This document shows positions 2,168 to 22,375 of a DNA stretch of 64,000 nucleotides, one piece after another; the stretch's first letter is position 1; each line of letters opens with the position of its first letter. This stretch comes from Parcubacteria group bacterium Gr01-1014_31 (GTDB lineage Bacteria > Patescibacteriota > Patescibacteriia > Buchananbacterales > GWA2-38-13): NCBI GenBank assembly GCA_007376135.1, contig VMFR01000003.1:11660-75659 (forward strand). Reading direction: 5' to 3'. The translations under genes and the position numbers were made by a program. The notes under the pieces were generated by a model. That model made no database searches, was not told where the DNA came from, and saw only the letters and a list, made by a program, of their open reading frames with translations.

Positions 2168-3355
2168 ATGCCAAAAATTTCCACCGACCCGAAGCTGATC
2201 GCCGAAGTGTTAGAGCGCGGCGTACAGAACATCTATCCTAGCAAAGAGGCGTTCGGACAGGCGCTCGCGTCCGGCCGGCGGCTCACCATCTACAACGGCA
2301 TCGACCCGACGGGGCAGTTGCACCTCGGGCATGGCGTGGTGCTCTTGAAGTTGCGGCAGCTGCAGCAACTGGGCCACCGCGTCATCGTGTTATTTGGCGG
2401 GTTCACGGCGCAGATCGGCGACCCCACCGATAAACTGGCAACGAGGCAGCCCTTGAGCGCAGCGCAGATCAAGGCGAACGCCAAAAACTACAAAAAACTC
2501 ATCGGAAAGATCTTGGACCCGAAAGCCACGGTGTGGAAAGATAACGCGACCTGGTGGGACAAGATCACCGCCGCAAAATTCCTGGAATTGGCATCGGAGC
2601 TGTCGGCCGCCCGCATCTGGGAACGCGACATGTTCCAGGAGCGCCTCAAGCAGGGCAAAGAGGTGCACCTGCACGAATTGCTCTACCCTTTGCTGCAGGG
2701 GTACGATTCGGTGGCCATGGACGTGGACGCCGAGGTCGGCGGCAACGACCAGACCGTCAACATGCTGGTGGGGCGCGAGATGCTCAAACGCCGTGGCAAG
2801 GAAAAGTTTGTCCTGACGTGCAAGCTGCTGGTGGACCCGACGGGCAAGAAGATGGGGAAGACCGAGGGCAACTTTGTCGCCATGGACGACAGCCCCCAGC
2901 AAACCTACGGCAAGGTGATGTCGTGGCCGGACTCGGTCGTACCGTTGGCATTCGAACTGGCAACCGTCGTGCCCTTGCCGGAAGTGGTGCAGGTCAGGAA
3001 TGACCTGGCCGCCGGGAAGAACCCAAAGATTTTAAAAATGCTTTTGAGCTACAAGATCACCGAGCTGTACCACGGCACGCCAGCGGCGATTTCCGCCGAA
3101 GAGCATTTCAAACAGGTCTTTGAGCGGGGCGAAAAGCCAACCGACATTCCCGAGGTGCGGACGGTCGAACGCGCGCTGCTCGAGGTGCTGGTCGCCTGCA
3201 AGCTCGCCGCTTCCCGGACCGACGCGCGTCGGTTGATTCAGCAGGGCGGCGTCAAGGTCAACGGGGTGACGGTCAAGGATGAACGGTTTGAGGTTCCCGA
3301 TGCCGCGGTCATTCAGAAAGGCAAACGGTTTTTCGTCGGTATCAAACGCGCGTGA
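2168..3355 (+). CDS. tyrS: Tyrosyl-tRNA synthetase
   Basis: HLGH (HIGH) and KMGKT (KMSKS) motifs, C-terminal S4-like domain; starts 14 nt after the valS stop. Confidence 0.9.
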   Translation: MPKISTDPKLIAEVLERGVQNIYPSKEAFGQALASGRRLTIYNGIDPTGQLHLGHGVVLLKLRQLQQLGHRVIVLFGGFTAQIGDPTDKLATRQPLSAAQIKANAKNYKKLIGKILDPKATVWKDNATWWDKITAAKFLELASELSAARIWERDMFQERLKQGKEVHLHELLYPLLQGYDSVAMDVDAEVGGNDQTVNMLVGREMLKRRGKEKFVLTCKLLVDPTGKKMGKTEGNFVAMDDSPQQTYGKVMSWPDSVVPLAFELATVVPLPEVVQVRNDLAAGKNPKILKMLLSYKITELYHGTPAAISAEEHFKQVFERGEKPTDIPEVRTVERALLEVLVACKLAASRTDARRLIQQGGVKVNGVTVKDERFEVPDAAVIQKGKRFFVGIKRA

Positions 3356-3374: not shown

Positions 3375-4823
3375 ATGGCGTTGACGGCCCGGCGGGCAAT
3401 GGTGGGCGGTCGCGGGGCGGCCGCAGTGGTGTTGGCAGGCTCTCTGCTGCTTTCGCTGCTTACGTACTGGCAGCACGACGGTTCCTCGGATGCCGGGACG
3501 ACCTTGACGACGGCCTGGCAGATGAGCCAGGGCAAAGTGCTGTACCGCGATATCGTGGATTTTTACCCGCCCGTGGCGTTCACGCTGCTGGCGGGCGTTT
3601 TTAAAATTGTTGGCCCCAGCTATCTGGCCGCCAAGGCGCTGTTCCTGGGGTTGCTGATCATTTGCGGACTCGCGGTGCAGCGCGCCACGCGAGACTTTTT
3701 ACCCCCCGCATGGCGGTACGCCGTGCTGCCACTGTGGCTGGTATTTTTCGCGTTCTACACGCTCATCAACCACAACCCCCTCAGTTTGTGGCTTGCGGCG
3801 CTGGCCTGGGTGAGCTGGAGCACGGCGCAGCGCTCATCCTCCCGCGGATTTTCGTTCTTGGCCGGGCTGTTGGCGGGAGCGGCCAGCGGCACATTGCAGA
3901 CGAAAGGATTGGCGGTGCTGGTGGCAGCCGCACTCGTCGTTGCCATCCATCAGTGTAAGGTTTGGCGGCTCTTGTTATGGTTGGGTGGAGGTTTTGTTAC
4001 CGTGCTGTTCCTGTTATTTACCATCTGGCCGCCGGCACTTTTGTGGGAGTTGCTGGTCGCCGTTCCCGCCAATTCCTACGCTGTACCGCCGGGCCGTTTG
4101 GAGTATGGCTTGTTGGTGTTGGCGGCCGCGGTGCAGTTGGTTGCCGGCTGGCAGCTCTTGCGGCAGCGCGCTCCGATCGTGGTCTGGGGATGGTGGTGGC
4201 TGGGAGCGGCCCTGCTTGCCAGCACCGCGGTGCGCACCGACGCGCATCACGTCGTGATGAATTCGTTCCCGTTGCTGCTGGTTTCCCTGTGGATCGCGTC
4301 GCAGCGGCGGTGGGAGAGAACGCACGGCCTATCCCAAGTGGTGGATCGGTTGTTAACAACCTTGGTCGCGGCGTATCCGTTGACGCTCATGTTGCTCGTC
4401 GTCGTGGCGCTGCCGTCCGGATTCCCGACCGCCCAGGATCGGACGTTTTGGGAGTGGCTCGCGCTGCGAAACCGGGGGATCGAGCAAATCGTGTTCGCGG
4501 TACAGACCCGCGTACCGCCCGGCAAGCCCATCTACGCCGGGCCGTTCTTGGCCAATGCGTACTTTGAAACGCAACGCGAAAATCCCACCCGTTTCAACAA
4601 TCTCATCACCGGCCTGTACCCGTCCGCGTATTTTCAGGAGGCACGCGCCAGCCTGGAGGAAGATACGCCGGCGGTGGTGTTGCTTAATTACCCGCTGGTC
4701 GCCAAATACCAGCACCAGATGAACAATCCTGTCGATGCGTTCTTCTGGTCGCGCTATCGCGTGACGGCGCAATTCGGCGACACGGTGCTGTTGGAATTGC
4801 AGCAGCCGTCAGGCAGCCCGTAG
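3375..4823 (+). CDS. Polytopic GT-C fold glycosyltransferase paralog 1 (PMT_2/GT39-83-like; DE motif replaced by DA)
   Basis: Many predicted TM helices. 'FYPPVAF..FG.S...AK' block aligns to the PMT_2 signature of paralog 6. C-terminal soluble domain with the 'QRENPTRFN' motif. Start chosen at the first ATG after the tyrS stop; it is uncertain. Confidence 0.6.
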   Translation: MALTARRAMVGGRGAAAVVLAGSLLLSLLTYWQHDGSSDAGTTLTTAWQMSQGKVLYRDIVDFYPPVAFTLLAGVFKIVGPSYLAAKALFLGLLIICGLAVQRATRDFLPPAWRYAVLPLWLVFFAFYTLINHNPLSLWLAALAWVSWSTAQRSSSRGFSFLAGLLAGAASGTLQTKGLAVLVAAALVVAIHQCKVWRLLLWLGGGFVTVLFLLFTIWPPALLWELLVAVPANSYAVPPGRLEYGLLVLAAAVQLVAGWQLLRQRAPIVVWGWWWLGAALLASTAVRTDAHHVVMNSFPLLLVSLWIASQRRWERTHGLSQVVDRLLTTLVAAYPLTLMLLVVVALPSGFPTAQDRTFWEWLALRNRGIEQIVFAVQTRVPPGKPIYAGPFLANAYFETQRENPTRFNNLITGLYPSAYFQEARASLEEDTPAVVLLNYPLVAKYQHQMNNPVDAFFWSRYRVTAQFGDTVLLELQQPSGSP

Positions 4824-4827
4824 AGCT

Positions 4828-6252
4828 ATGCCGCACACCATTCTGCGCCAGCGGTGGGTCGTCTGGGGACTCTTGGCAGCCGGGTTTGCCACAGTGGCAG
4901 GCTACCACGCCGTACTTCCCATTGATGTTGATGAAACCTGGGTGCTGACGGTCGGCTGGCAGATCACCCAGGGCGTGGACCCGCTCCGCGATCTGTATGA
5001 ATTTCATACGCCCGGCGCATTCTACCTGGCCGCCGCGATCATCAAAATGTTCGGCGCCAGCGTTTGGCCGTTGCGGCTCGTGGTGACGCTGTTGACCGCG
5101 GCAACGGCCTGGCCGCTGTGGCGCCTGGCGCAACTATTGGGATTGCGGGGTTGGCAGCCGCCGGCGGTGGTGGCGACGTGGATTTTGCTGCTCACTATGT
5201 TCCCGTGGATCAACCCCAACCACCTGGCCCAGCTGGGTGGTATCTGGGCGGCGTGGGCGCTGGTCTTTGCCTGGCAGAAGCGGCGGCTGCGCTGGTTTGT
5301 TCTGGCGGGCGCGATTGCCGGGCTTGCCGTGTGGCTGTTGCAGACCCGCGGAGGCGCCCTGGTGTTGGCGGGCGTGGTAATTGCCCTCACGGCCCGTCGG
5401 CTTTGGCCGTTGGTGGCATACCTTGCCGGGGTCGGGGTGGTTTGGCTGCCATTCCTGTTGTGGCCGCCCGCGCTGCTCTGGCATAGTCTGGTCACGCTGC
5501 CGACGACCCAGTACCTGCCGTCCCAGTTCGTCGGCGTGCAGCTGGTGGTCATTACGGTCGGATTCCTCACTGTTCTCGCGCTGCTGGCATTGGCCGTGCA
5601 TGCCGCGCCGTCCGGATTTTGGCCGCTCTGGGCAGTCGCGCTTGTTCTGGCGGCAAGCATCTGGTCGCGCGCCGAAATTGCCTACTGGTCAACGATCGCC
5701 TGGCCGCTGTCGGTGCTGTTTTTTTCGCTGCTGTCGTGCCCCTGGCCCCGGCTGTCTGGCCGTCCACGGCAGACGGTGCGTGCCGTCATGTGGTACGGCG
5801 GCGCGCTGCTCGCGGCGCAGGTGTTTGGTTGGGCGGCGATCAACGGCGCGTCGCGCGTCGCGATGGCCATTTCCGACCGGCGCGCAGGGCGCGGCGACCT
5901 GTGGCAGGGGATCGGGGCAGCGGTAACGGCGCGGACGTTGCCGGGGGAGGAGATTTTTGCCCTGCCGTATCTGCCGGGGGCATATTTTTTCAGCCAGCGG
6001 CCGAACGCCACGCCGTACAATACGCTGCTGTCCAATTTTCACCCGCCCGAAATCCTCGCGGACGCGATTTCGCGGCTGGAGCGGGTCAAGCCGAAAGTGG
6101 TGGTGCGGGCACGCGACAGTTTCGCCGTTCGGCGAGGTTTTCATCAGGACGGCACCGCGCTGGACGCGTACCTGGATGACCATTACCGCGTGGCGCAAGA
6201 CTCGGTGGCCGGGTATGTGGTGGAAATTTTGGAGCGTCGGCCTGGGTTATGA
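4828..6252 (+). CDS. GT-C fold glycosyltransferase paralog 2 (DE motif intact)
   Basis: 'DVDETWVLTVGWQ' plus 'EFHTPGAFY..FGASVWPLRLVVTLLTAAT' align with the PMT_2 motif region. C-terminal domain 'SQRPNATPYN ... DAYLDDHYRV'. Starts 5 nt after the paralog 1 stop. Confidence 0.65.
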   Translation: MPHTILRQRWVVWGLLAAGFATVAGYHAVLPIDVDETWVLTVGWQITQGVDPLRDLYEFHTPGAFYLAAAIIKMFGASVWPLRLVVTLLTAATAWPLWRLAQLLGLRGWQPPAVVATWILLLTMFPWINPNHLAQLGGIWAAWALVFAWQKRRLRWFVLAGAIAGLAVWLLQTRGGALVLAGVVIALTARRLWPLVAYLAGVGVVWLPFLLWPPALLWHSLVTLPTTQYLPSQFVGVQLVVITVGFLTVLALLALAVHAAPSGFWPLWAVALVLAASIWSRAEIAYWSTIAWPLSVLFFSLLSCPWPRLSGRPRQTVRAVMWYGGALLAAQVFGWAAINGASRVAMAISDRRAGRGDLWQGIGAAVTARTLPGEEIFALPYLPGAYFFSQRPNATPYNTLLSNFHPPEILADAISRLERVKPKVVVRARDSFAVRRGFHQDGTALDAYLDDHYRVAQDSVAGYVVEILERRPGL

Positions 6253-7682
6253 ACGAGGAATTGCCGACATCTCGCTGGGGGCTGGGCGCCCGTGCCACGG
6301 TGGTCGCGGTGCTGGCAGCGGTTGCCTTCATCCGGTGGTACGTCGGAATCGATCCGGATGCGGGATTGACGATGACGGCCGCCTGGCAGGTGAGCCAGGG
6401 ATTGGTGCCGTACCGGGATTTTTTCGAATTCCATCCCCCCGGCGCATTTTATGCGCTGGCCGGCGTTTTTCAGATCTTTGGCTCCACCTACGTCGTCGCC
6501 AAACTGTTCTCGATGCTCGTTCTGGCCCTTGGCGCGGTGGGAGTGGATCGCTGCGCGCGGCGGCTGTTGCTGCGTCCGTGGCATCGCGTTGCCGCTTTGG
6601 CGGTGTGGGGGCTGCTGGCGCTGCAGTTTCCACTGGTGAGCTATAGTACATACGCGCACGTCGGTAGCATCTGGGTCGCGTGGCTTTTGGTGCGGCTCCA
6701 TCAGCGCAGCGCTCAAGGGTGGGAGGCGCTCGCCGGGTTTGCCGTCCTCGGAGCGAGCGCGGCGGGGGTGGGGTGGCTTTTGCAGACGCGCGGTGCGGCA
6801 TTGTTCCTGGTCGGGCTGGGTGTTGCCGCGGCGTCGCGCCGCTGGCAGCTGGTCGCAGCGTACCTGGGAGGATCGGGGGTGGCGCTGCTGCCCGGCCTCG
6901 CGCTTCCGCTGCGGGAATTTTGGCAGCAAACGGTCGTCTATCCCGCTGCCCACTACCCGGCCATCAACACCGACCAGCCATTGTGGCTGGTGCTCTGGGG
7001 TGGCGTCATCGTGACGCTGGGCATAGTCGCATACTGGGCGCGATCCTCGTGGCGCGGATTTTGGCCGTTGTGGTGGACGGCCCTCGCGCTCTTGGTCAGC
7101 ATCTGGCCGCACGCGAACGGGGTGTACCTCTCGATGGTGCTGTGGCCCTTGGCGCTGTTGTTCACCGCCGCGGTGCCGCCGCCGTCGGCCATGGCGTGGC
7201 GACGGCTCTGGCAGGGGGTAGCTGCGGCATCCGGAGCTTTTGCCGGCGCGCTGGCCTTGATGACCGTCGGCGTTTTTTTTACCCTGTTCCCCGGCGCGCG
7301 CGCCGCCGACCCCTGGGGCGCGCGGGCGCCCTTCTGGGAGGATCTGGCCGTTGAGGTGCGGATGCGGACGCAGCAGAACGAACCCATCTTTGCCACGCCC
7401 ACGCTACCCAATCTTTATTTTTTCGCGCAGCGTCCGAATGCCACGCGGTATAATTCCCTGTTCAGCGGTCAGTACGACGCTCCGTATTTCTTGCAAGCGG
7501 TCGTCGATCTGGAGCAGCGCCGTCCTCGATACGTCGTGCGCGAGCTGGACAGCTTGGCGGTGCAACTGGGTTACCACCGTGACGGCACCCAGGTGGATGT
7601 GTATCTGGATGAGCACTACCGCGTGGCCGCCGAGCTGACGAAGTTTCTGCCGCGGCGGTTGCAGCTCTTGGAGCGGCGATAG
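6249..7682 (+). CDS. GT-C fold glycosyltransferase paralog 3 (DA variant)
   Basis: ATGA start/stop overlap with paralog 2. 'DPDAGLTMTAAWQVSQG...EFHPPGAFY'. C-terminal 'AQRPNATRYN ... DVYLDEHYRV'. Confidence 0.65.
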   Translation: MNEELPTSRWGLGARATVVAVLAAVAFIRWYVGIDPDAGLTMTAAWQVSQGLVPYRDFFEFHPPGAFYALAGVFQIFGSTYVVAKLFSMLVLALGAVGVDRCARRLLLRPWHRVAALAVWGLLALQFPLVSYSTYAHVGSIWVAWLLVRLHQRSAQGWEALAGFAVLGASAAGVGWLLQTRGAALFLVGLGVAAASRRWQLVAAYLGGSGVALLPGLALPLREFWQQTVVYPAAHYPAINTDQPLWLVLWGGVIVTLGIVAYWARSSWRGFWPLWWTALALLVSIWPHANGVYLSMVLWPLALLFTAAVPPPSAMAWRRLWQGVAAASGAFAGALALMTVGVFFTLFPGARAADPWGARAPFWEDLAVEVRMRTQQNEPIFATPTLPNLYFFAQRPNATRYNSLFSGQYDAPYFLQAVVDLEQRRPRYVVRELDSLAVQLGYHRDGTQVDVYLDEHYRVAAELTKFLPRRLQLLERR

Positions 7683-7689
7683 CATCCGT

Positions 7690-9114
7690 ATGACGTGGTA
7701 CCCCCTCCCTCGTTCCCGCTGGACGCCTCCCGCGATTGCGGGGCTTGTGTTGGCGCTGCTGGTGGTGCGCTGGTATCCGGACCCCGCCAGCGACGAAACA
7801 TTGACGCTGACCATCGCCTGGCAGGTCAGCCAGGGGCTTGGGCTCTACCGCGATGTCTTTGAATTCCATCCGCCCGGTACGTTCTATTTCTTTGGCGCGC
7901 TGTTCCGGGTGTTCGGCCCGTCGTATCTGGCGGCGAAGATCGCGATCGTACTCCTGACCGCGGCAACCGGTTTTGCCCTCGATGTGCTAGTTCGCCGCTT
8001 CACCTCCCGCGGACTACCGCGGGTCACCGTGCTGGCGGGGTGGCTGCTGTTGGTCTGGCAATTTCCGGCGATCGGCTACCATTCCTTGGCGCACCTGGCC
8101 AGCATTTGGGTTGCGCTCTTTTTGGTTCTGGCGTCCGTTGAGCGGCGTACCGGCTGGGCTTTGGCCTGCGGTCTCGCGACGGCCGCTGCGGGCTGGTATA
8201 TGCAACCCTACGGCGTGGTCCTGGCGGCGGTGGGCGTTGGCAGCATGCTCGCGACGCGGCAGCTGCGGCTGGCGTTCGCTTACGTTGCCGCGCTCGCGAT
8301 CGCGCTGCTGCCGTTGCTGGCCTGGCCTTTGCCGCTGCTGTGGCAGCATCTGGTGCGATTCCCGCTGACGTACTACGCGCCCGCGAACCTTTCCCAAGGC
8401 AGTCCGGCAGGGTTGTTCGTCCTGGTCGCGGTGGTTCTCATGGTCGGCGCTGCGGCTGTCTTCAGTCGGCGGGTGCCATCCGGGTTTTGGCCGTTATGGT
8501 TCATGTCGCTGGTCCTGCCGCTCACCGTGTGGCCGCACTCGCAGGTCGGCTACCTGGCGAGTGTTGCCTGGCCGTTGCTTTTGCTGCTCGTGGTAACACC
8601 GCCGGGTGGGGGAGCGATGCGGGAGCAGATCTCGGCCATCGTCGGGCAAAGCCTTCGGTTTGTGGCCGTGGTCGGCGGCATCGCAGCGGCAGTCGTTTCG
8701 GTCGGATTTTTTTCCGTGCGTTGGCCGCTCCATGACGAGTTCGGTCTGCGCGTGCCGTTCTGGGACGACCTTGGAACTGCGGTGCAGGCCCGCACGAGGA
8801 CGAATGAACCGATCTTTGCCGTGCCGTACTTGCCGGCGATATATTTTTTTGCCCAGCGGCCCAATGCCACCCGGCACAACTCGCTGCAGACCGCGTTCCA
8901 TCCGCCGTACGTCTTGGATGAGATCATCACCGATCTGGAGCGCACCAAGCCGCGGGTGGTCATCCGCGAGTATGCCAGCTGGCTCGCGCGATTGGGGCAG
9001 TACGACGAGGGCAACCGCGTTGACGCCTACCTGGATATGCACTATCGGTTCAGTGAGGAGCTGACGCAGTTTGCCCCGCGGCGGATCCAGCTGTGGGAAC
9101 GACGCGTTCCGTAG
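7690..9114 (+). CDS. GT-C fold glycosyltransferase paralog 4 (DE intact)
   Basis: 'ASDETLTLTIAWQVSQG...EFHPPGTFYFF'. C-terminal 'AQRPNATRHN ... DAYLDMHYRF'. Confidence 0.65.
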   Translation: MTWYPLPRSRWTPPAIAGLVLALLVVRWYPDPASDETLTLTIAWQVSQGLGLYRDVFEFHPPGTFYFFGALFRVFGPSYLAAKIAIVLLTAATGFALDVLVRRFTSRGLPRVTVLAGWLLLVWQFPAIGYHSLAHLASIWVALFLVLASVERRTGWALACGLATAAAGWYMQPYGVVLAAVGVGSMLATRQLRLAFAYVAALAIALLPLLAWPLPLLWQHLVRFPLTYYAPANLSQGSPAGLFVLVAVVLMVGAAAVFSRRVPSGFWPLWFMSLVLPLTVWPHSQVGYLASVAWPLLLLLVVTPPGGGAMREQISAIVGQSLRFVAVVGGIAAAVVSVGFFSVRWPLHDEFGLRVPFWDDLGTAVQARTRTNEPIFAVPYLPAIYFFAQRPNATRHNSLQTAFHPPYVLDEIITDLERTKPRVVIREYASWLARLGQYDEGNRVDAYLDMHYRFSEELTQFAPRRIQLWERRVP

Positions 9115-9118
9115 TCGT

Positions 9119-9234
9119 CTATGCCCCGTAGGACAACGGAATGGCGGGGAAAATAGATATTAGACGGGGGAGAAGCTATTATGTACGCCATCACATGAGC
9201 ATTACACATTTGACCGTTGTCCTGCGGGGTAGGC
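9119..9234 (+). repeat. Start-codon-enclosing inverted-repeat element, copy A (between GT-C paralogs 4 and 5; degenerate distal ATG)
   Basis: Inverted repeats ctatgccccgtaggacaacgg and ccgttgtcctgcggggtaggc (ATG changed to AGG); begins 5 nt after the paralog 4 stop. Confidence 0.7.
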
Positions 9235-10628
9235 TGCAAGACCTTCCCCGTATCGTTGCCTCGCGGTGGTGGCCGTTCGTCTACTGGCCGGCATTGTTGC
9301 TCCTCGCGATTTTTTTGAAATGGGGCCACCTGGTCAACCAGGATGAGGGGTTAACGCTGGCCGGTGCGTGGCAGGTTAGCCTTGGGTTGCAGCCATATCG
9401 TGATTTTTACGATTTCATCACGCCGGGCTCTCATTATCTTTTGGCGGGCGTCTTTCGCATGTTCGGTTCGACGTACGTCGTGGCGAAGGTCTTTTCATTG
9501 TTCCTCCTTCTGCTCTCCCTATACGGCGTGCGACGGATCACGGTGCGGTTCGCCTCCGGACCATGGTCGTGGTGGCCGTCGCTGCTGTGGCTCTTGCTGT
9601 CCGATCACTATGTGCTGATCAATCACAACACGTACGCGCTGGTGGCGGCGGTCTGGGCGATCGAGCGCGCGTTGGCGGCAGCCGGCAAGACCGCGGCGCG
9701 ATGGCCGTCCTGGCTGGTCGCGGGGTTGCTGGCCGGCGCGACCGTGATGCTGCACCAGGCGCGGGGAGCAGCCGTGGTCGCGGCCGTGCTGTGGCTCGCG
9801 CTGACCTTCGGGGTTGTCCCGGCTCTTGCCGTCATCGGGGGAGTGGCACTTGCGCTCCTGCCGCTGTTGGCATGGCCGTTGCCGCTCCTGCTGCAATCAT
9901 TGGTTGCCTTTCCTTTCGTCCAATATCTCCCGTTCAACCGGACCGGGATGACGCTGTTGGGCGCTTTGGTCGGCGTATATCTCGGGGTGGTGTTGCTTTC
10001 CCCATCACGCTGGCGAGACCGCCGCTGGGTATTTCTCTGGGGCAGCGGGGTTTTGCTGTTGGCGAGTAACTTCAGCCAAGCCGACCGTTTTCACCTGCTG
10101 CCGGCGATGTTTCCCATCGGCGCGCTGATCGCAACGGTCGCCATCCAGCGGCGTTCGCGCTGGCCGGCGTTGATGGCCGCTTCCGGCACGGCGGTATTGG
10201 CGGTAATCTCCATCGGCTTTACGGCACACCGCATTGCCAGCGTCGGCGTCAGGCCGTTCCTTCAGCTGCGCGACCCCCAGCTGGAGCAGCTGGTTTCCCG
10301 CATACAGCAAACCGTCGCGCCCCAGCAGCCGATCTTCGCCGCTCCGTTCCTGCCCAATCTTTATTTTGAAACTCAGCGCCGTAATCCGACGCGGTTCAAC
10401 GTGCTGATCTATCGGCACCATCCTTCGGCGTTCTTTGCGGCAGCGCGTGCCAGCCTGGAAGCCGACCCACCGCCCGTCATTCTCCTGAACTACTACACGA
10501 CGCCCGAAGGGTTTGCGACATTCCTGCTGGGCAACCCGGTCACTGACTATATCCGCCAGTACTACCGATACGCGGAAACCGTGAATAACATCCAGATCTA
10601 CCGCCGCACGGTCCCTCCGACACTATGA
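9141..10628 (+). CDS. GT-C fold glycosyltransferase paralog 5 (DE intact; start uncertain because it lies inside the repeat element)
   Basis: 'NQDEGLTLAGAWQVSLG...DFITPGSHY'. C-terminal 'TQRRNPTRFN'. The first in-frame ATGs (9141, 9195) lie inside the 9119-9234 inverted-repeat element, whose distal repeat has lost the ATG. Confidence 0.6.
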   Translation: MAGKIDIRRGRSYYVRHHMSITHLTVVLRGRLQDLPRIVASRWWPFVYWPALLLLAIFLKWGHLVNQDEGLTLAGAWQVSLGLQPYRDFYDFITPGSHYLLAGVFRMFGSTYVVAKVFSLFLLLLSLYGVRRITVRFASGPWSWWPSLLWLLLSDHYVLINHNTYALVAAVWAIERALAAAGKTAARWPSWLVAGLLAGATVMLHQARGAAVVAAVLWLALTFGVVPALAVIGGVALALLPLLAWPLPLLLQSLVAFPFVQYLPFNRTGMTLLGALVGVYLGVVLLSPSRWRDRRWVFLWGSGVLLLASNFSQADRFHLLPAMFPIGALIATVAIQRRSRWPALMAASGTAVLAVISIGFTAHRIASVGVRPFLQLRDPQLEQLVSRIQQTVAPQQPIFAAPFLPNLYFETQRRNPTRFNVLIYRHHPSAFFAAARASLEADPPPVILLNYYTTPEGFATFLLGNPVTDYIRQYYRYAETVNNIQIYRRTVPPTL

Positions 10629-12073
10629 AATTTCATTGGGCCAAAATGTTTTTGCGGTCACCGTGGATTTGGGCAGTGTTTGGGTTGACGGTTTTCGGCA
10701 TGGCGCTGCGATGGCTGGGATTGGGACGCGAGTCGCTGTGGATGGACGAGCTGCAGACTTTGCGCGCCGCTCTTCTGCCGTGGGGGGAGCTGGTCATGGA
10801 ACGCCTGTCGGCCGGCCACGCGCCGCTATATTTCCTCTTGATGAAGCCGTGGATAGCTGTCTTTGGTGCGTCGGAAACGGCGCTGCGGTTGCCGTCGTTG
10901 CTGTTGGGAACAGCGACCATCCCGCTGACCTATCTGTTGGGCCGGCAGGCAGTCTCCCGCACGGTCGGTCTGTTCGCGGCATGCGGGATAACAGTCTCGG
11001 CCATCAACATCGAGTACGCGCAGGAGGCACGGCCATATACGCTGCTCACGCTGTTGGTGTTGCTCTCCGCCCTGGGGGCGGTGAAGTTGCATTCCTCGTT
11101 GGGTCGGCAAGGCTGGGGGTTGGCGTGCGTTGGGTTGATCGCCGGCATCTACACGCATTCCTATTTTCTCTTCTTTGCATTGGTCATCGTGGGCTGGCTG
11201 CTGTGGTCGAGTCGGGGGACGGCGGCCGTGGGACGGGTCTGGTCGCTCGCGCTCACGGTCGGCATGGCCGCGCTGCCGTGGGTCGCTGCCGTCACTTGGC
11301 AGCAGCTGCGCCCGCAGCCGGGCAATCCGGTCTTCTTCCTTTCCCAGCAGCAGTGGACCCTCTGGGACGCCGCCGTCAATTTCTTGGTCCGGACGCGGGC
11401 GGCCACCTACTGGCCCGAACCGTCGTATCTGGCGGTCTTTCCAACCGCTCTGCTGTTGGGTGTGGCGATCCTTCCGGTCGTACGGTGGGTTCGCCGGGGC
11501 GTTACGGATCAGAAGACCCCGATCGTCCTGCTCTACGGTTTGGTAGTCATCCCGGTGCTTTTGCCGTGGCTCTGGTCGCAGGCAGGTACGAATATCTTCG
11601 GCATCCATTATCTGCTGCCGGTGACGCCGGCATTGTATGCGGTGGTTGCCGTCGGCGCGGTCAGCACATGGGAAATGCTGCCGTGGCGCCAAAGGCCGAT
11701 CGTTCTGGCGATCGCCGTTGCGGCGTTCATCCCGCTACAGTCCGGGAGTTTGGCGGTCGCGTACCTCGTGCACCATAAGCCGCCGTGGCGCGAGGTGGAC
11801 GGTTATCTCCGGCGTAACGTCGGTGGGGAAGACGCGGTCGTGCTCATCGGCCCGGCCGCCGAGGCAACTCCGGTACTGGCGCACTACGCGCGCGGAGCCT
11901 ATGCGGTGCAGCCTGCGCCGACCGCCGATGTCCGCGAGGCCGCGCGGCTCTGGATGATCGGCTATGGACCCCAGGCGATGGCGCGCTCCCTTCAGTCCCT
12001 GGCGACGGTTTTGCAACCGTTCGCAACCGTGCGGATAGATCGCATCGGCATCATCGGGCTGGAGCGCCGTTGA
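10625..12073 (+). CDS. Glycosyltransferase family 39/83-like (PMT_2, ArnT/PMT-type) membrane protein
   Basis: Canonical PMT_2 N-terminal signature 'SLWMDELQTLRAAL...HAPLYFLLMKPWIAVFGASETALRLPSLLLGTATIPLTYLLGRQ'. ATGA overlap with paralog 5. Lacks the C-terminal domain shared by paralogs 1-5. Confidence 0.75.
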   Translation: MKFHWAKMFLRSPWIWAVFGLTVFGMALRWLGLGRESLWMDELQTLRAALLPWGELVMERLSAGHAPLYFLLMKPWIAVFGASETALRLPSLLLGTATIPLTYLLGRQAVSRTVGLFAACGITVSAINIEYAQEARPYTLLTLLVLLSALGAVKLHSSLGRQGWGLACVGLIAGIYTHSYFLFFALVIVGWLLWSSRGTAAVGRVWSLALTVGMAALPWVAAVTWQQLRPQPGNPVFFLSQQQWTLWDAAVNFLVRTRAATYWPEPSYLAVFPTALLLGVAILPVVRWVRRGVTDQKTPIVLLYGLVVIPVLLPWLWSQAGTNIFGIHYLLPVTPALYAVVAVGAVSTWEMLPWRQRPIVLAIAVAAFIPLQSGSLAVAYLVHHKPPWREVDGYLRRNVGGEDAVVLIGPAAEATPVLAHYARGAYAVQPAPTADVREAARLWMIGYGPQAMARSLQSLATVLQPFATVRIDRIGIIGLERR

Positions 12074-12129: not shown

Positions 12130-12825
12130 ATGGCCACTTCTCGCACTGTTGCCGGAAATCATCTCGCTATCCTGGAGGAGATCCTCGAGACGATCTCGCG
12201 GACGTTAGAATTGAAAGACATTCTGCAGCAGGTCGTGCACATCGTCGCGCGGGTTACCCGTGCCGATTCCTGCCTGCTGTATCTCATTTCGGGCCGTGAG
12301 GTCGTACTCCAGGCGTCACTGAAAACGCACCCGCACTTGTCCAAGATCCGCATGAAGGTGGGTGAGGGCATTACCGGCTGGGTCGCGGAGGAGAAAAAGC
12401 TGGTGGCCATCGCCCGCGCCGCTTACCAGGATCCGCGGTTCAAGCTGTTCAATGCCCTGCCCGAAGACCGTTTTGAGGCGTTCCTGTCGGTGCCGATCAT
12501 CCATCGCGGCACGGTCATCGGTGTGATCAACGTGCAGCACCGCCGGCCCCGCCGCTATCCAAAAACCACCGTGCGACTGTTGGAGACCGTCGGCAAGCAG
12601 ATCGGCGGGCTGCTCGAAGTCGTACGGCTCGTATCGGAAACCCAGGCGCTCAAGGAGGCGTTGGAGACGCGCAAGCTGATCGCCCGCGCCAAAGCCGTGC
12701 TGATGAAGCAGCACCATTTGGACGAGGCGGCCGTTCACCAATTGTTGCTGAAAAAAAGCATGGACAAGCGTAAGTCGCTGCGCGAAGTGGCCGAGGCCGT
12801 GATTTTAGCAAGTGAGATATCGTGA
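12130..12825 (+). CDS. GAF domain plus ANTAR RNA-binding antiterminator regulator
   Basis: N-terminal GAF-like fold. C-terminal ANTAR consensus 'RKLIARAKAVLMKQHHLDEAAVHQLLLKKSMDKRKSLREVAEAVI'. Confidence 0.8.
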   Translation: MATSRTVAGNHLAILEEILETISRTLELKDILQQVVHIVARVTRADSCLLYLISGREVVLQASLKTHPHLSKIRMKVGEGITGWVAEEKKLVAIARAAYQDPRFKLFNALPEDRFEAFLSVPIIHRGTVIGVINVQHRRPRRYPKTTVRLLETVGKQIGGLLEVVRLVSETQALKEALETRKLIARAKAVLMKQHHLDEAAVHQLLLKKSMDKRKSLREVAEAVILASEIS

Positions 12826-12974
12826 AATGATTTGACTATGGGATTGCGTATTGCGCATTGTTTAGCCGTCCGGAGAATACGTAATTCGTAATCCGCAATA
12901 AAAAATTTGTAATTTATTTCTGGAGGTTATCCACTTGTCCGCCGCTCCATCGGGGCGTAGGATAGGGGAGTTGG

Positions 12975-12992
12975 CGGCACAATGGCGTGCCG
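12975..12992 (+). promoter_or_regulatory. Hexaloop hairpin in glnA leader (candidate ANTAR target)
   Basis: cggcac-AATGGC-gtgccg: 6-bp stem, hexaloop with A at position 1 and G at position 4. Confidence 0.35.
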
Positions 12993-13050
12993 TTCGCCGG
13001 AGACAATGAGGTCTTCTGGGTTTATGCCCGGGAGATTTTTTGGTATTCCT

Positions 13051-14460
13051 ATGACCAAAGACGAAATATTCTCGCTGATCGACCGCGAGCAGGTCGCGAT
13101 GGTGGATTTCCGTTTCGTGGATGTGTTCGGGCGCTGGCAGCATTTCACCTCGCCGGTGTCCGAGTTGACGCCGGAGGTGTTCGTGGAGGGCGTCGGATTC
13201 GACGGTTCTTCCATCCGCGGCTTCAAGCCGATCCAGGAAAGCGATATGCTGCTGGTGCCCGATCCGGTATCGGCGTTCGTTGACCCGTTCTTCGCCGTCA
13301 AAACCCTGGTGCTTATCTGCGATGTGTATGAGCCGGGTAATGAGCTGACGCCGTTCACCTACGACCCGCGGCGCATCGCGCGTCAGGCGGAAAGTTTCTT
13401 GCGGGGAAGCGGCGTGGCAGATGTGGCGTACTTCGGCCCCGAAGCCGAGTTCTTTATTTTTGATTCCATCCGTTACCACCAGGACGCCCGCGAAGGAAGC
13501 TACGCAATTGAATCGTCGGAAGCGCCGTGGCGGAGCGGCGACGGGGGAGCGAACCTCGGCTACCGCATTCCGCATAAAGAAGGGTATTTCCCGGTGCCGC
13601 CGCACGACACGCAGCAGGACGTGCGCACCGCGATGGTCCAGCATTTGACGGCCTGCGGCGTGCCGGTGGAAAAGCATCACCATGAGGTCGCGACCGCCGG
13701 GCAGGCGGAGATCGACCTGCGCTACGGGCCGTTGGTTTCGATGGCTGATCAGATGATGATCTACAAGTACGTGGTCAAAGCAACCGCCCGTCAGCACGGC
13801 AAGGTGGCAACCTTTATGCCCAAACCGATGTTCGGCGACAACGGTTCGGGCATGCATACGCACGTGTCGCTCTGGCAGGGCGGCAAACCGTTGTTCGCCG
13901 GTAACGGCTACGCGGGATTGTCGGACCTGGCGCTGCATTTCGCCGGCGGGTTGCTGCACCACGCGGCGGCGGTGCTCGCATTCGCCGCGCCGACGACCAA
14001 CTCCTATAAACGGCTGGTCCCCGGCTACGAGGCGCCGGTCAATCTGGTCTATTCCCAGCGTAACCGGTCGGCCGCCATCCGCATCCCCGTGTACTCGCAG
14101 TCGCCCAAGGCCAAGCGTTTGGAGTTCCGTCCGCCGGACCCGTCATCCAATCCGTACCTGACGTTCGCCGCGATGCTGATGGCCGGGTTGGACGGCATCC
14201 GGCGCAAGCTCGACCCCGGCGCTCCCATCAACGAGAACATCTACGCCCTGCCGCCGGAGCGCGCGCGGCAGATCAAGTCGGTGCCCGGGTCGTTGGGCCA
14301 GTCGCTGTCGGCGTTGGCGGCCGACCACGAGTTTTTGACCGCCGGCAATGTCTTCCCCAAGGGATTCATCCAGCAGTGGATTTCCCTCAAGCGTGAAGAG
14401 ATTTCGCAGCTCAACCTGCGGCCGCATCCCTATGAATTCGTGCTCTACCACGACTGCTAA
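13051..14460 (+). CDS. glnA: Glutamine synthetase type I
   Basis: GS-I motifs ('MHTHVSLW', 'KPMFGDNGSGMHTHVS', adenylylation-region-like C-terminus). GGAGA RBS about 10 nt upstream of ATG 13051. The upstream ORF-track start at 12982 is rejected. Confidence 0.9.
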   Translation: MTKDEIFSLIDREQVAMVDFRFVDVFGRWQHFTSPVSELTPEVFVEGVGFDGSSIRGFKPIQESDMLLVPDPVSAFVDPFFAVKTLVLICDVYEPGNELTPFTYDPRRIARQAESFLRGSGVADVAYFGPEAEFFIFDSIRYHQDAREGSYAIESSEAPWRSGDGGANLGYRIPHKEGYFPVPPHDTQQDVRTAMVQHLTACGVPVEKHHHEVATAGQAEIDLRYGPLVSMADQMMIYKYVVKATARQHGKVATFMPKPMFGDNGSGMHTHVSLWQGGKPLFAGNGYAGLSDLALHFAGGLLHHAAAVLAFAAPTTNSYKRLVPGYEAPVNLVYSQRNRSAAIRIPVYSQSPKAKRLEFRPPDPSSNPYLTFAAMLMAGLDGIRRKLDPGAPINENIYALPPERARQIKSVPGSLGQSLSALAADHEFLTAGNVFPKGFIQQWISLKREEISQLNLRPHPYEFVLYHDC

Positions 14461-15722: not shown

Positions 15723-15793
15723 TTTACGTTGACGTCAACGATTTTACGGTGGTATACTGCCTCCGCTTTCTTTTTTGTTTGAGCCGAAATTCG

Positions 15794-16561
15794 ATGATTA
15801 AGGTCAAGAACGACGCGCCGGCCATTCCCGTACTCGAGGTGCGGGATCTGTATGCCTCGGTCGAGGGTAAGCCGATTCTCCAGGGCGTCACGCTGACGGT
15901 CGGGCGGGGCGAATTACATGTACTCATGGGCCCCAATGGTTCCGGTAAATCGACGCTCGCCAATGCGTTGGCGGGCGCGCCCAACGTTACCGTGGCCAGC
16001 GGCGCAGCCCGACTGGACGGCCATGATCTGCTGGCCATGAGTCCCGATGAGCGGGCGCGGGCCGGGCTATTTTTGGGTTTTCAGTATCCCGTCAGTATTC
16101 CCGGGTTGAGCTTGACCGGCCTGATCGCCGCGGCTCGCGCTGCCCGCGCGTTGGGTCCGGTCGAAAAGCAGGCACTGCCCGCGCTGCTCAAGGAGCTGCA
16201 ACTGGCCCCCGAGATGGTCGGCCGTGATGTGAACGAAGGATTATCGGGCGGTGAGAAAAAAAAGTCGGAGATCGCGCAGCTCACGTTGCTGCCCCCGCTG
16301 CTGGCTATTTTGGATGAACCGGACTCCGGATTGGATATTGATTCGCTGCAACTGATCGCTCGGGCCATCGACCGGCGCCACCGCGAGGGAACCGCCGTGC
16401 TCCTCATCACGCATTACCAGCGGATCGTCCAGTTCCTGCGGCCGGATGCCGTGCACGTAATGGCCAGCGGGCGGGTGGTGAAGAGCGGGCCCGGTACCAT
16501 GGCGGCCGAGATCGAGCGGACCGGCTACGCGCCGTTGCTGGGTCCGAATCCGGCAGCATAA
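15794..16561 (+). CDS. sufC: Fe-S cluster assembly ATPase SufC
   Basis: Walker A 'GPNGSGKST', ABC signature 'LSGGEKKK', Walker B 'ILDEPDSGLD'. Confidence 0.9.
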   Translation: MIKVKNDAPAIPVLEVRDLYASVEGKPILQGVTLTVGRGELHVLMGPNGSGKSTLANALAGAPNVTVASGAARLDGHDLLAMSPDERARAGLFLGFQYPVSIPGLSLTGLIAAARAARALGPVEKQALPALLKELQLAPEMVGRDVNEGLSGGEKKKSEIAQLTLLPPLLAILDEPDSGLDIDSLQLIARAIDRRHREGTAVLLITHYQRIVQFLRPDAVHVMASGRVVKSGPGTMAAEIERTGYAPLLGPNPAA

Positions 16562-16569
16562 GACCGGCT

Positions 16570-17979
16570 ATGTCCGACCATCTCTCGGAACTCGTGAAAT
16601 CAAAGCAAGAGTACCGGTACGGGTTCCAGGAACCGGACCGGTCCGTGTTGCGTTCACCCAAGGGGTTATCACGCGCGGTCGTCGACCTGATTTCCGGGCA
16701 GAAGCAGGAGCCGGATTGGATGCGGCAGCTGCGCTACGAAGGGCTGAAGCATTTTTCGGCGCGGCCGATGCCGGCCTGGGGCGCCGACCTTTCGGGTATT
16801 GATTTCAACGACATCTACTATTACATTAAGCCGACCGAGCGCAAAGCGCAGGATTGGAACGACGTGCCGCCCGAGATCAAGCGGACGTTCGATCGGCTGA
16901 AGCTGCCCAAGTACGAGCAGGAATTCCTGGCTGGGGTGGGCGCGCAGTACGATTCCGAGAATATCTACCACCATGTGTTGCCCGAGCTGCGCAAGCAGGG
17001 AGTGGTCTTCACTGACGTGGAGACCGCCACGCGCGAGTACCCAGACCTGGTGCGGCGCTATTTCTCCACGATCGTGCCGTCCAATGACAATAAGTTCGCG
17101 GCCCTCAACACGGCCGTGTGGTCGGGCGGGAGTTTCATCTACGTGCCGCCGAACGTGCATGTGGAACTGCCGCTACAGGCATATTTCCGCATCAACGCGT
17201 CGCAGATGGGGCAGTTCGAGCGCACCCTCATTATTGCCGATGAAGGCAGTTTCGTGCACTACGTGGAAGGGTGCTCGGCGCCCATCTACCAGAAAAGTTC
17301 TCTGCACAGCGCGGTGGTCGAGATCGTGGCGAAGCGCGGCGCGCGCGTGCGTTACACGACCGTACAGAACTGGTCCAAGAACGTCTACAATTTGGTGACC
17401 AAGCGCGCGCGGGCCGAAGAGGAGGCGACCGTCGAGTGGGTGGACTTCAATTTCGGCAGCAAGGTGACGATGAAATATCCGTGCGTCGTATTGGCCGGCC
17501 GCGGGGCGCGCGCAGACATTCTGTCCATGGCCTTCGCCGGAGCGGGTCAGATCCAGGACGCGGGCGGTAAGGCCATCCACTTGGCGCCGGATACCACATC
17601 GGTCATCACCTCCAAGTCGGTTGCCCAGGGCGGCGGTCGTACGACCTACCGCGGGCTGCTGCAGGTGGCCCCGGCCGCGCTGCGCTGCCGTTCGAAGGTC
17701 ACCTGCGACGCGCTCATCCTGGACCCGCAGTCAGCGTCGGACACCTATCCGACGATGAAGATCGGTAACAGCCAGGTCAGCATCGAACATGAAGCGACGG
17801 TGACCAAGATCTCCGAAGCGCAACTTTTCTACCTGCAGAGCCGCGGTTTGCCGGCCGCGGAGGCAGCCGCCCTCGTGGTCAACGGCTTCATCGAACCGTT
17901 GGTCAAGGAACTGCCGTTGGAGTACGCCGTGGAGATGAATCGTTTGATCGCCCTGGAGATGGAGGGTTCGGTCGGATAG
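16570..17979 (+). CDS. sufB: Fe-S cluster assembly protein SufB
   Basis: Length and conserved SufB blocks ('NTAVWSGGSFIYVP', 'QNWSKNVYNLVTKRA'). Confidence 0.9.
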   Translation: MSDHLSELVKSKQEYRYGFQEPDRSVLRSPKGLSRAVVDLISGQKQEPDWMRQLRYEGLKHFSARPMPAWGADLSGIDFNDIYYYIKPTERKAQDWNDVPPEIKRTFDRLKLPKYEQEFLAGVGAQYDSENIYHHVLPELRKQGVVFTDVETATREYPDLVRRYFSTIVPSNDNKFAALNTAVWSGGSFIYVPPNVHVELPLQAYFRINASQMGQFERTLIIADEGSFVHYVEGCSAPIYQKSSLHSAVVEIVAKRGARVRYTTVQNWSKNVYNLVTKRARAEEEATVEWVDFNFGSKVTMKYPCVVLAGRGARADILSMAFAGAGQIQDAGGKAIHLAPDTTSVITSKSVAQGGGRTTYRGLLQVAPAALRCRSKVTCDALILDPQSASDTYPTMKIGNSQVSIEHEATVTKISEAQLFYLQSRGLPAAEAAALVVNGFIEPLVKELPLEYAVEMNRLIALEMEGSVG

Positions 17980-17991
17980 GGGAGCATCGCC

Positions 17992-18633
17992 ATGTTTCAG
18001 ACCCTAAACGAAGTGGTCGTCCGCGGCGCGACCGTCATCGTCGACCAGGATGAAGCCGCGGACCTGCGCATCGTGCTGACGCCGCAGTCGGATGTCGTGT
18101 ACGTGGGCGTGCTCGGCCTGGGACAATCTTCCAAACGGCTGCATTTCGTGCTGCAGGACGGCGCTCGTTTGCGCTGCACCACGGTCTGCTGCGGTGCCGC
18201 GAGCGACCGGATCGCCGCCGACTATATCATTGAACACGTTGGCCGAGGCAGTACCGCCTTCACTTTGGTCAAGGGCGTTTTTTCCGACACCGCTCGCGCC
18301 GAGATCTTCGGCCTGATCAAGATCCCATCCAGCGGACAGCAGACCGAATCGTTCCTGGAACAGCGGGCGCTGCTGCTGTCGGATACCGCCTACGCCAATT
18401 TGCAGCCCAAGCTGCAGATCGAAGCCAATGATCTGAAGGCCAGTCACGCCGCCACGGTCGGCCAGCTGGATGCCAACCAGTTGTTCTACTGCCAATCGCG
18501 CGGATTGCCGCGCGCAACCGCCGCCCGGCTGATCGTGCGGGCGTTCTTGGCCGAGGCTTTGGCGGCGGTGGCGCAGCCCGAACTTCGCGGAGAATTGCAG
18601 CAAGCATTGGACCGTAAGATGGCGCTTGCATAA
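17992..18633 (+). CDS. sufD: Fe-S cluster assembly protein SufD (short form)
   Basis: SufB/D C-terminal beta-helix region 'QLFYCQSRGLPRATAARLIV'; position immediately after sufB. Confidence 0.75.
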   Translation: MFQTLNEVVVRGATVIVDQDEAADLRIVLTPQSDVVYVGVLGLGQSSKRLHFVLQDGARLRCTTVCCGAASDRIAADYIIEHVGRGSTAFTLVKGVFSDTARAEIFGLIKIPSSGQQTESFLEQRALLLSDTAYANLQPKLQIEANDLKASHAATVGQLDANQLFYCQSRGLPRATAARLIVRAFLAEALAAVAQPELRGELQQALDRKMALA

Positions 18634-18639
18634 TCTTCT

Positions 18640-18948
18640 ATGTCCACCCTACTCCAGTTCCAAGCCGGTGAACTACCTTCGGGCCAGTGCCGCGCATATG
18701 CGACCGGCGGTATGACCGTGATGGTCTACCACCTGGCCGATACCTTCTACGCCACACAGGGGTTGTGCAGCCATGAGGACATGCCGCTCGAAGGAGGAGA
18801 GATCAAGGAGAACGTCATCCAATGCCCGTTCCATGATTCGCGGTTCAATATCCGGACCGGCAAGGTGCTGTCCGGGCCCGCCGAGCGCGGTTTGAAAATC
18901 TTTCCCGTCACCGTCGACGGTGGTACGGTAACGGTAACGTTGCCGTAA
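18640..18948 (+). CDS. Rieske [2Fe-2S] domain ferredoxin
   Basis: CxH ... CxxH boxes ('CSHEDMPLEGG', 'CPFHDSRF'). Confidence 0.8.
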   Translation: MSTLLQFQAGELPSGQCRAYATGGMTVMVYHLADTFYATQGLCSHEDMPLEGGEIKENVIQCPFHDSRFNIRTGKVLSGPAERGLKIFPVTVDGGTVTVTLP

Positions 18949-18949
18949 T

Positions 18950-20170: not shown

Positions 20171-20239
20171 TAAGTGCTAAGTGTAATTCATTGATTGGCC
20201 ATGACTTAGTACTTACTGCTGTGTACTTAGTACTTCGCT

Positions 20240-22246: not shown

Positions 22247-22302
22247 GGGAGCAGGCGAGGCCAGAAAGGCTGGATCTTGTCAAGTGGACGGCACCTGGAG
22301 TA

Positions 22303-22330
22303 TTGACAATCGGCGATTTTTCCCTATACT
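22303..22330 (+). promoter_or_regulatory. Sigma70-like internal promoter upstream of atpE
   Basis: TTGACA, 16-nt spacer, TATACT. Confidence 0.55.
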
Positions 22331-22375
22331 AGTGGTGTTTTAAAAATTAACGCATTTAACCTTAACGACATTTCT

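Follow-up and report, generated by a model that had tools for sequence, protein, structure and literature searches.

Why would a bacterium of the Parcubacteria group keep six consecutive genes for membrane proteins resembling glycosyltransferases, and what might such an array accomplish? We addressed this question for an 8.7-kb array at positions 3375–12073 of a 64-kb stretch of contig VMFR01000003.1 from Parcubacteria group bacterium Gr01-1014_31 (the window, by which we mean the whole stretch of 64,000 nucleotides analyzed). The six genes, designated P1 to P6, follow tyrS, the gene for tyrosyl-tRNA synthetase. Structural modeling and profile comparisons predict that all six encode GT-C-fold membrane glycosyltransferases of class GT-C(A), five of them paralogs and the sixth a member of a different GT-C family. 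The locus probably specifies co-transcribed extracytoplasmic enzymes that would draw on polyprenyl-phosphate sugars to assemble or decorate a glycoconjugate of the cell surface. The proteins belong to a known enzyme class; of interest are the expansion of the gene family and the hypervariable core of the array.

Five paralogs and one member of another family

Six tightly packed plus-strand open reading frames (ORFs), of 474 to 495 codons each, lie directly after tyrS, and the originally predicted coordinates and stop/start overlaps were borne out:

2168–3355, + strand: tyrS (Pfam tRNA-synt_1b, 3e-65), conserved upstream neighbor, 19 nt ahead of P1
3375–4823, + strand: P1, ArnT-like GT-C family member, P1-type orthogroup; family profile score 404 bits
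4828–6252, + strand: P2, P2-type orthogroup; 348 bits; Pfam PMT_2 6.1e-9
6249–7682, + strand: P3, P3-type orthogroup, a duplicate inside the P2-P4 clade; 350 bits; hypervariable core
7690–9114, + strand: P4, P4-type orthogroup; hypervariable core; C-terminal alpha/beta domain at about 8755–9111
9141–10628, + strand: P5, P5-type orthogroup; top family profile score, 424 bits
10625–12073, + strand: P6, GT39/PMT_2-like member of another GT-C family, a lineage-specific addition

P1 to P5 are 28–43% identical to one another, aligned over their full length, and a profile hidden Markov model (HMM) of the family scores 348–424 bits on the five members. With this model, no further family copy turned up in the window, and P6 stayed unmatched although every filter was switched off; aligning the family profile to the single P6 sequence in hhalign gave a probability of 0.2%. 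Only when profiles of both families were compared did a relationship emerge, along the N-terminal 142 columns (probability 96%, E 4e-9). Hence, of the proposal that the locus holds six PMT_2/GT-C paralogs, the predicted GT-C membership of all six and the PMT_2 assignment of P6 stand, but judged by sequence the array is made up of five paralogs and one protein of a different GT-C family. Relatives of P6 are annotated as GT39, come from Actinobacteria, Cyanobacteria and Chloroflexi, and are 38–45% identical to it over approximately one third of the protein.

In the suggested Pfam search, at the gathering threshold of PMT_2 (PF13231), 26.1 bits, both P6 (37.6 bits, 3.2e-9) and P2 (36.7 bits) pass, but P3 (20.1 bits) and P4 (16.4 bits) stay below it, and P1 and P5 have no Pfam match. 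None of the six matches Pfam PMT (PF02366), and none scores above any NCBIfam cut-off (P6 reaches 30 bits against MnslTaseMT1671, for which the cut-off is 900). In the wider family, PMT_2 is the sole recurrent Pfam match, found in 55 of 79 members at E<0.01. Word-indexed homolog searches returned close relatives only. The family as a whole comprises 263 representatives at 50% identity (E<1e-30, full length), and 3774 at E<1e-10; its members are named "hypothetical" or "ArnT family glycosyltransferase" in Parcubacteria and "glycosyltransferase family 39 protein" in Ramlibacter lithotrophicus. It is thus a sizeable, uncharacterized ArnT-like GT-C subfamily, present in bacteria of the candidate phyla radiation (CPR) and in proteobacteria, with a distinctive C-terminal domain.

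Predicted fold

For P4, AlphaFold2 (AF2) was run on an alignment of 16 sequences; the resulting model (pLDDT 88.4, pTM 0.88) joins a membrane domain made of helices to an alpha/beta domain at the C terminus (residues ~356–471). Its top structural match is ArnT, with which Foldseek is in accord (ArnT, E 8e-7, TM 0.58), and its structural neighbors include AglB, STT3 and PglB; the GT-C enzymes embCAB, Aft/Mpt, ALG3/9/12 and ALG6/8/10 are also among the structural matches. The best structural matches of P6 are Pmt4 and Pmt2, and the models place P1 to P5 nearer to ArnT than to the PMT enzymes. With approximately 11–13 membrane helices in each of P1 to P5, the multi-helix membrane domain with a conserved core fold that marks GT-C proteins is recognizable, and the structural comparison proposed as a check agrees with the GT-C assignment. 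For P1, P3, P4 and P5, this assignment draws on structure and profile evidence and not on PMT_2.

Gene packing, synteny and phylogeny

From tyrS to P6, the intergenic distances are, in order, 19, 4, −4, 7, 26 and −4 nt, the two negative values being ATGA overlaps in which the start of P3 meets the stop of P2 and the start of P6 meets the stop of P5. A terminator signal within the array was not above chance (20 sites found against 17.4 expected), and promoter-like sites lie ahead of tyrS (2134–2163) and ahead of the GAF/ANTAR regulator gene that comes next after P6. Judged by spacing, it is reasonable to regard P1 to P6 as an operon behind tyrS, as originally proposed, and tyrS is possibly the head of the same transcript. 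The 8.7-kb array is base-for-base identical in an independent European Nucleotide Archive (ENA) assembly (L007), and we therefore rejected an assembly artefact; a Logan assembly also contains the array, with differences in the DNA but the same P4 protein.

Two start codons deserve comment. The longest ORF of P5, from the ATG at 9141, has an N-terminal extension (MAGKIDIRRGRSYYVRHH...) that is absent in the ortholog at the syntenic locus of a close relative (L001); P5 may instead begin at a second ATG of the same frame, at 9195, in which case the P4–P5 gap would be 80 instead of 26 nt. No stop codon interrupts the P1 frame upstream as far back as an ATG at 3279, and a start there would make the gene share 77 nt with the end of tyrS; in public gene calls the start is at 3375, and the L001 locus shows the same open frame upstream.

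The slot between tyrS and the GAF/ANTAR gene with glnA is conserved among relatives, as the comparison of gene orders shows:

Window: five family genes plus P6
L001: five genes, orthologs of P1 to P5
L014: five genes, P1-type, P2-type, two P3-like and P5-type
L009: tyrS, P1-type, P2-type, P5-type, a 248-aa Ser/Thr-rich repeat protein and a PG_binding_1 protein
L002: tyrS, P1-type, P3-type and P4-type (three family genes; a short contig covering the tyrS-proximal end only)
L010: P2-type, P5-type, the 248-aa Ser/Thr-rich repeat protein, a PG_binding_1 protein and GAF/ANTAR (two family genes; the GAF/ANTAR-proximal end only)

The gene tyrS stands ahead of the array in L001, L002, L009 and L014, and the slot holds three genes in L009 and five in L001 and L014. 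P6 is missing from L001 and L014, where the P5 ortholog directly precedes the GAF/ANTAR gene. A neighbor-joining tree of the family groups the five paralogs with their orthologs in a single clade of 32 sequences out of 157, which splits into a P2-P3-P4 sub-clade and a P1+P5 sub-clade. By the phylogeny and synteny suggested as a check on the paralogs, the P1...P2...P5 frame is old, with gene gain and replacement in the middle.

A hypervariable core under purifying selection

The middle of the array is where close relatives differ most. Sliding-window identity delimits the following segment:

6365–9217: hypervariable core, most of P3 and P4; counterpart in L001 at 8559–11485

Across this core, DNA identity to L001 is 56–70%, compared with 77–94% in the aligned flanks. 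The flanking genes are 81–97% identical to their L001 counterparts at the protein level, with rates of synonymous substitution (dS) of 0.41–0.58, and P1, P2 and P5 behave alike (83–88% protein identity, 88% for P1 and 87% for P5; dS 0.37–0.54). In P3 and P4, amino acid identity drops to just 59% and 53%, and dS rises to 1.78 and 1.60, which is 3–4 times the dS of their neighbors. The ratio of nonsynonymous to synonymous rates (dN/dS) is 0.20 for P1, 0.19 for P2, 0.19 for P3, 0.27 for P4 and 0.14 for P5, and all five paralogs are thus under purifying selection; decaying pseudogenes were rejected on the same values. The P4 of the window is equally near the L002 copy (54%; tyrS 77%) and the L001 copy (53%; tyrS 92%). 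Given that dS is higher while constraint is unchanged, the pattern indicates, rather than decay or simple positive selection, that P3 and P4 are probably old allelic lineages exchanged by recombination. The same divergence pattern is familiar from surface-polysaccharide loci.

The loop-1 motif and other active-site residues

All motifs quoted in the original prediction were found, with Asp-Glu (DE) in P2, P4, P5 and P6 and Asp-Ala (DA) in P1 and P3:

3489–3494: P1, D39-A40
4930–4935: P2, D35-E36
6357–6362: P3, D37-A38
7792–7797: P4, D35-E36
9342–9347: P5, D68-E69-G
10745–10750: P6, D41-E42

Because the direct alignment of the family with Escherichia coli ArnT begins past the DE motif and its register is probably uncertain by one turn, the motif was mapped through P6. 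In the profile-profile comparison (hhalign, probability 96%), D35-E36 of the family, numbered as in P4, falls on D41-E42 of P6, and a P6-family profile, the only query to reach ArnT in PDB searches, aligns P6 D41-E42 to "PDEG" of Cupriavidus metallidurans ArnT. ArnT D55/E56 corresponds to Pmt1 D77/E78 and EmbA D281/D282, and the first Asp is common to all these enzymes (PMC7801869). Through these alignments and residue equivalences, the DE/DA position maps to the catalytic motif of the first outside loop, equivalent to ArnT D55/E56, in agreement with the original placement. In the P4 model, D35 opens helix 34–47, which follows helix 12–28.

Of the 157 full-length sequences of the family, 155 have D35 and 137 have E36, and the loop-1 Asp is found in all six array proteins. 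Among the array-clade sequences examined, a nonacidic residue at position 36 (A, S or T) is confined to P1-types and P3-types, apart from the outlier P0138, and over all loci the P3-types have A, T or V there; in the independent five-gene array of L014, the P1- and P3-type copies carry S, V and T, and the three genes of L009 have DEG throughout. Since the Glu is missing only from P1- and P3-types, while the more distant L009 is all DEG, its loss is derived, lineage-specific and retained. The proposal that DA marks inactive subunits is not supported by these comparisons. The Asp is kept, purifying selection acts on both P1 and P3 (dN/dS about 0.2), and the corresponding DE-to-DA substitution in Streptomyces coelicolor Pmt, E114A, complements fully, unlike D113A (PMC8698208). 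The accompanying suggestion that P1 and P3 are re-purposed is possible, since the Glu loss is lineage-specific and conserved.

Other active-site positions vary as well. A Lys or Arg at position 174 is present in 146 of the 157 family members and replaced by Y, H or A in P4-types. The family Q-x-K/R-G motif containing K174 aligns in hhalign to the Lys of "TKG" in E. coli ArnT, and by our residue count in the P6-family alignment, K203 of C. metallidurans ArnT is the same Lys. The C. metallidurans enzyme is reported to lose its function when D55, K85 or K203 is mutated (PMC8698208). The equivalent of D55 is found in all copies and that of K203 in P1, P2, P3 and P5, P4 having Tyr instead (Y174 in MQPYG, 8200–8214). 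P4 also has Q285 in place of Asp, P4-types thus retaining DE yet lacking the conserved D285. P1 retains K177 (TKG) and the D and H of "RxDxxH"; P2 retains R174 and has Tyr in place of H288; P5 retains R208 and the D and H of "xADxxH" and is the only one of the five to keep the full family consensus.

The C-terminal domain and the supposed sequon

The C-terminal domain shared by P1 to P5 had been put at about 170 aa; in the AF2 model it spans approximately 120–130 aa (P4 residues ~356–474). P6, said to have no such domain, has an alpha/beta domain of its own at residues ~388–481. The P1–P5 domain is strongly conserved at P379, P382, Y385, F386, E387, N392 and T394, which make up the motif P-x-x-P-x-x-Y-F-E...N-P-T. 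The motif reads QRPNAT(P/R) in P2 to P4 and QR(E/R)NPTR in P1 and P5, with the following examples:

4572–4598: P1, N-P-T motif
5995–6021: P2, QRPNATPYN
10374–10400: P5, YFETQRRNPT

The N-A-T form had been read as an N-x-T sequon pointing to N-glycosylation. Across the 157 family sequences, position 393 is Pro in 96 and Ala in 42, so that N-P-T is ancestral and N-A-T a trait of the P2-P4 clade. Since the consensus N-P-T is no sequon, we rejected that reading in favor of a domain motif that does not speak for N-glycosylation. None of the six proteins has a Pfam STT3 match, and with the NCBIfam model archaeo_STT3 the score is 8.2 bits, the cut-off being 450; by these profiles the array proteins are not oligosaccharyltransferases of the STT3/AglB/PglB kind.

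Donor and acceptor context

Two proteobacterial loci carry strong members of the P1–P5 family (501 and 464 bits for L011 and L012, respectively) near GT2 and GtrA genes. In the betaproteobacterium Ramlibacter lithotrophicus (L011:1–9862, VTOX01000002.1), the family gene (protein WP_168107119.1) follows AAA_31, T2SSE, two T2SSF, a 519-aa membrane protein, GT2, methyltransferase and GtrA_DPMS_TM genes, the T2SSE/T2SSF set being Tad-type pilus secretion genes. At a metagenome locus (L012:8001–17500), there are T2SSF, a gene for a 511-aa protein and a GT2-methyltransferase-GtrA module approximately 4 kb from the family member, together with a GT87 gene. The combination of GT2, GtrA and GT-C is the classic set of three components for glycosylation outside the membrane (reviews PMC8035078, PMC11127046). 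The GT2 and GtrA genes beside the proteobacterial members are the best evidence on the donor, and from them we infer that the P1–P5 family would use polyprenyl-phosphate monosaccharides.

The 511–519-aa multi-helix membrane protein encoded between the secretion genes and the GT2 module at both loci is unannotated; judged by its sequence, it may be another GT-C-like protein.

On the acceptor side, a 248-aa membrane-anchored, Ser/Thr-rich repeat protein is encoded after the last GT-C gene in two of the syntenic arrays (L009:7093–7839 and L010:2339–3085). It has repeats like ATTTGNLVVG, is 84% identical between the two loci and has neither a Pfam match nor a homolog in the window; PG_binding_1 genes follow it (L009:7888–9525 and L010:3102–4793). 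This protein is a possible O-glycosylation acceptor, and together with the Tad-pilus linkage it provides leads toward protein O-glycosylation. Literature searches on GT-C, ArnT or mannosyltransferase enzymes of CPR bacteria or Parcubacteria, and on Tad-pilus glycosylation by GT-C enzymes, retrieved nothing relevant.

Comparison with characterized systems

Like P1 to P5, ArnT (GT83; undecaprenyl-phosphate-L-Ara4N:lipid A transferase; PDB 5ezm/5f15) combines a GT-C(A) membrane domain with a C-terminal soluble domain on the outside, and it has "DEG" past the first membrane helix and a "TKG"-like Lys motif. It differs in length (approximately 550 aa, against approximately 470 aa for the array proteins) and in its arnBCADEF context, which is absent here, where no lipid A is expected; the P1–P5 domain in turn has its own motif, PFLPxxYFE...NPT. 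The likeness of P1 to P5 to ArnT is a structural one only. The GT39 protein O-mannosyltransferases (yeast Pmt1/2/4, actinobacterial Pmt) share the loop-1 DE motif, which P2, P4, P5 and P6 have, and act as paralog dimers, and the arrays of L009 and L010 precede a plausible O-glycosylation acceptor, the Ser/Thr-rich protein; however, the array proteins have no MIR domain and do not match Pfam PMT.

In three-component systems, a GT2 enzyme (GtrB/CsbB-like) and a GtrA/GtcA flippase serve a GT-C enzyme of the GtrII/YfhO type. The same module occurs at L011 and L012, and the chemistry expected of P1 to P5 is the same, although in the Parcubacteria loci the GT2 and GtrA genes are not adjacent and the GT-C genes number five to six, not one. 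The mycobacterial embCAB and Aft/Mpt enzymes and the eukaryotic ALG3/9/12 and ALG6/8/10 enzymes are precedents for paralogous GT-Cs that work stepwise with polyprenyl- or dolichyl-phosphate sugars on the non-cytoplasmic face; the embCAB genes are, in addition, paralogs lying in tandem, and EmbA pairs with EmbB as a heterodimer. These enzymes belong to other families (GT53, GT22, GT57, GT58), the Emb proteins are far larger and have carbohydrate-binding domains, and a strain-variable middle distinguishes the array described here.

Proposed function and alternatives

The original suggestion of an uncharacterized lipid-linked glycosylation function remains the best reading of the locus. In this scheme, a cytoplasmic GT2 enzyme encoded outside the window would load a sugar onto polyprenyl phosphate, a GtrA-type flippase, likewise encoded elsewhere, would carry the loaded lipid to the outer face of the membrane, and the GT-C enzymes would pass the sugar on to a cell-surface acceptor. 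Five to six enzymes with differing active sites would most likely serve different sugars, linkages or acceptor positions on one glycoconjugate, working in sequence or in combination. The P1-, P2- and P5-types probably represent the ancestral frame and P3 and P4 later duplicates swapped between strains, which would give strain-variable glycans; P6 is a PMT/GT39-like enzyme gained in this lineage.

Several results weigh against this scheme. PDB sequence searches with the six-protein alignment, with P6 alone and with a 138-sequence family profile found no GT-C match, and the hhalign link between the P1–P5 family and E. coli ArnT is weak (probability 34%); together with the lack of arn genes in the window, these results also place P1 to P5 outside GT83. 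GT2, GtrA and sugar-nucleotide genes were not found in the 64-kb window (Pfam searches, and tblastn with the GT2 and GtrA of L011), so that the three-component set is seen at L011 and L012 only and the donor pathway assumed for this organism comes from distant family members. In other Parcubacteria, the family occurs as a single copy among housekeeping genes with no glycan genes nearby. No Ser/Thr-rich candidate acceptor was found in the window, and the neighbor-joining tree is distance-based and carries no support values. Finally, three of the five paralogs differ at residues that are essential or conserved elsewhere; not all of P1 to P5 need therefore be catalytic, as far as can be judged from their sequences.

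The last point leads to the main rival explanation, namely, hetero-oligomeric GT-C complexes in which P5 and P2, whose active sites are complete, would be catalytic and P1, P3 and P4, whose sites are degenerate, noncatalytic or specificity subunits. There are precedents in the Pmt1-Pmt2 and EmbA-EmbB heterodimers and in the GT-C-fold PIG-U/GAB1 subunit of the glycosylphosphatidylinositol (GPI) transamidase. P1- and P3-types without Glu (replaced by A, S, T or V) always coexist with DE paralogs, L009 being DEG throughout, P4-types have no Lys or Arg aligned to the essential K203 of ArnT, and close, partly overlapping genes would suit stoichiometric co-expression. Nevertheless, every copy has the key Asp, the DE-to-DA change leaves S. 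coelicolor Pmt fully functional, and purifying selection fits either role. We regard such complexes as rather unlikely. Alternatively, instead of extending one glycan step by step, the paralogs could be parallel, independent enzymes, each with its own acceptor (a surface protein or wall polymer) and the same or different sugars, comparable to the PMT subfamilies or to the separate GT-C enzymes for lipoteichoic and wall teichoic acids in Firmicutes. Elsewhere, both in other Parcubacteria and among proteobacteria, single-copy members act by themselves; the number of copies varies (3, 5 and 5+1) while the flanking frame stays; and GT-C systems of several components are on record for separate wall polymers (PMC8035078, PMC5836110). 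The results fit both models, the conserved gene order and the co-variation of the P3-P4 block agreeing slightly better with a linked pathway, and we consider independent enzymes an unlikely solution.

Protein N-glycosylation using the N-A-T sequon, or lipid A modification of the ArnT type, is highly improbable. AglB, STT3 and PglB are indeed among the structural neighbors, ArnT is the top structural match for P4, and one member is named "ArnT family glycosyltransferase" by NCBI. Yet the family consensus is N-P-T, there is no Pfam STT3 match, archaeo_STT3 scores far below its cut-off, and the window showed neither arn nor lipopolysaccharide genes. Lipid A synthesis is not known from Parcubacteria.

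Other features of the window

The remaining genes give the genomic setting of the array:

46–2154: valS, the gene before tyrS
12130–12825: GAF/ANTAR regulator gene, next after P6 (56-nt gap), followed by glnA
28729–30114, 34003–35724, 35884–36894, 45083–46378, 47314–49422, 54511–55611 and 55975–57309: large ORFs without a Pfam match

The GAF+ANTAR gene, encoding an RNA-binding regulator of the antiterminator type, lies directly upstream of the glutamine synthetase gene (together 12130–14460), with a terminator-like hairpin at 13008–13039. The pairing is kept in L001, L007/L008 and L014, the contig of L010 showing the GAF/ANTAR gene only, and suggests nitrogen-responsive antitermination control of glnA. 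A suf cluster for iron-sulfur assembly (15749–20605; sufC, sufB, sufD-like, Rieske protein, sufS and nifU-like genes) is followed by genes for the F-type ATP synthase a, alpha and beta subunits (21434–27421). A Beta_propel-domain protein is encoded at 51296–53704, and the same domain adjoins a family member at another locus (L013). The seven large ORFs (336–702 aa) have no Pfam match at E<0.001 and none matches the GT-C family HMM; given that high G+C yields long spurious ORFs on both strands, some of them may be no genes.

Implications

Parcubacteria and other CPR bacteria, with genomes of approximately 1 Mb, rely on cell-to-cell contact, and very little is known of their surface chemistry. 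Against this background, 8.7 kb are given here to six glycosyltransferases predicted to face outward, in a slot that relatives share and with a middle cassette differing strongly from one close relative to another. This suggests a surface glycan that host recognition or phage keeps under pressure to diversify. Taken further, though with little confidence, the locus could be a modular, strain-variable machine for a surface-glycan "barcode" of an episymbiont, built on a P2-/P5-type frame with swappable P1-, P3- and P4-type paralogs and a recombining P3-P4 cassette; the paralogs with altered sites (no Glu or no Lys174) would then be specificity subunits or enzymes of new chemistry, and P3-P4 exchange would alter host recognition or phage susceptibility.

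The family also offers material for enzymology in general. The natural DE-to-DA, DS, DT and DV variants, together with the loss of Lys174, are test cases for which residues of GT-C loop 1 are needed. The proteobacterial members, with their GT2/GtrA modules beside Tad-pilus genes, are culturable, and the biochemistry of this group of enzymes would therefore be testable there.

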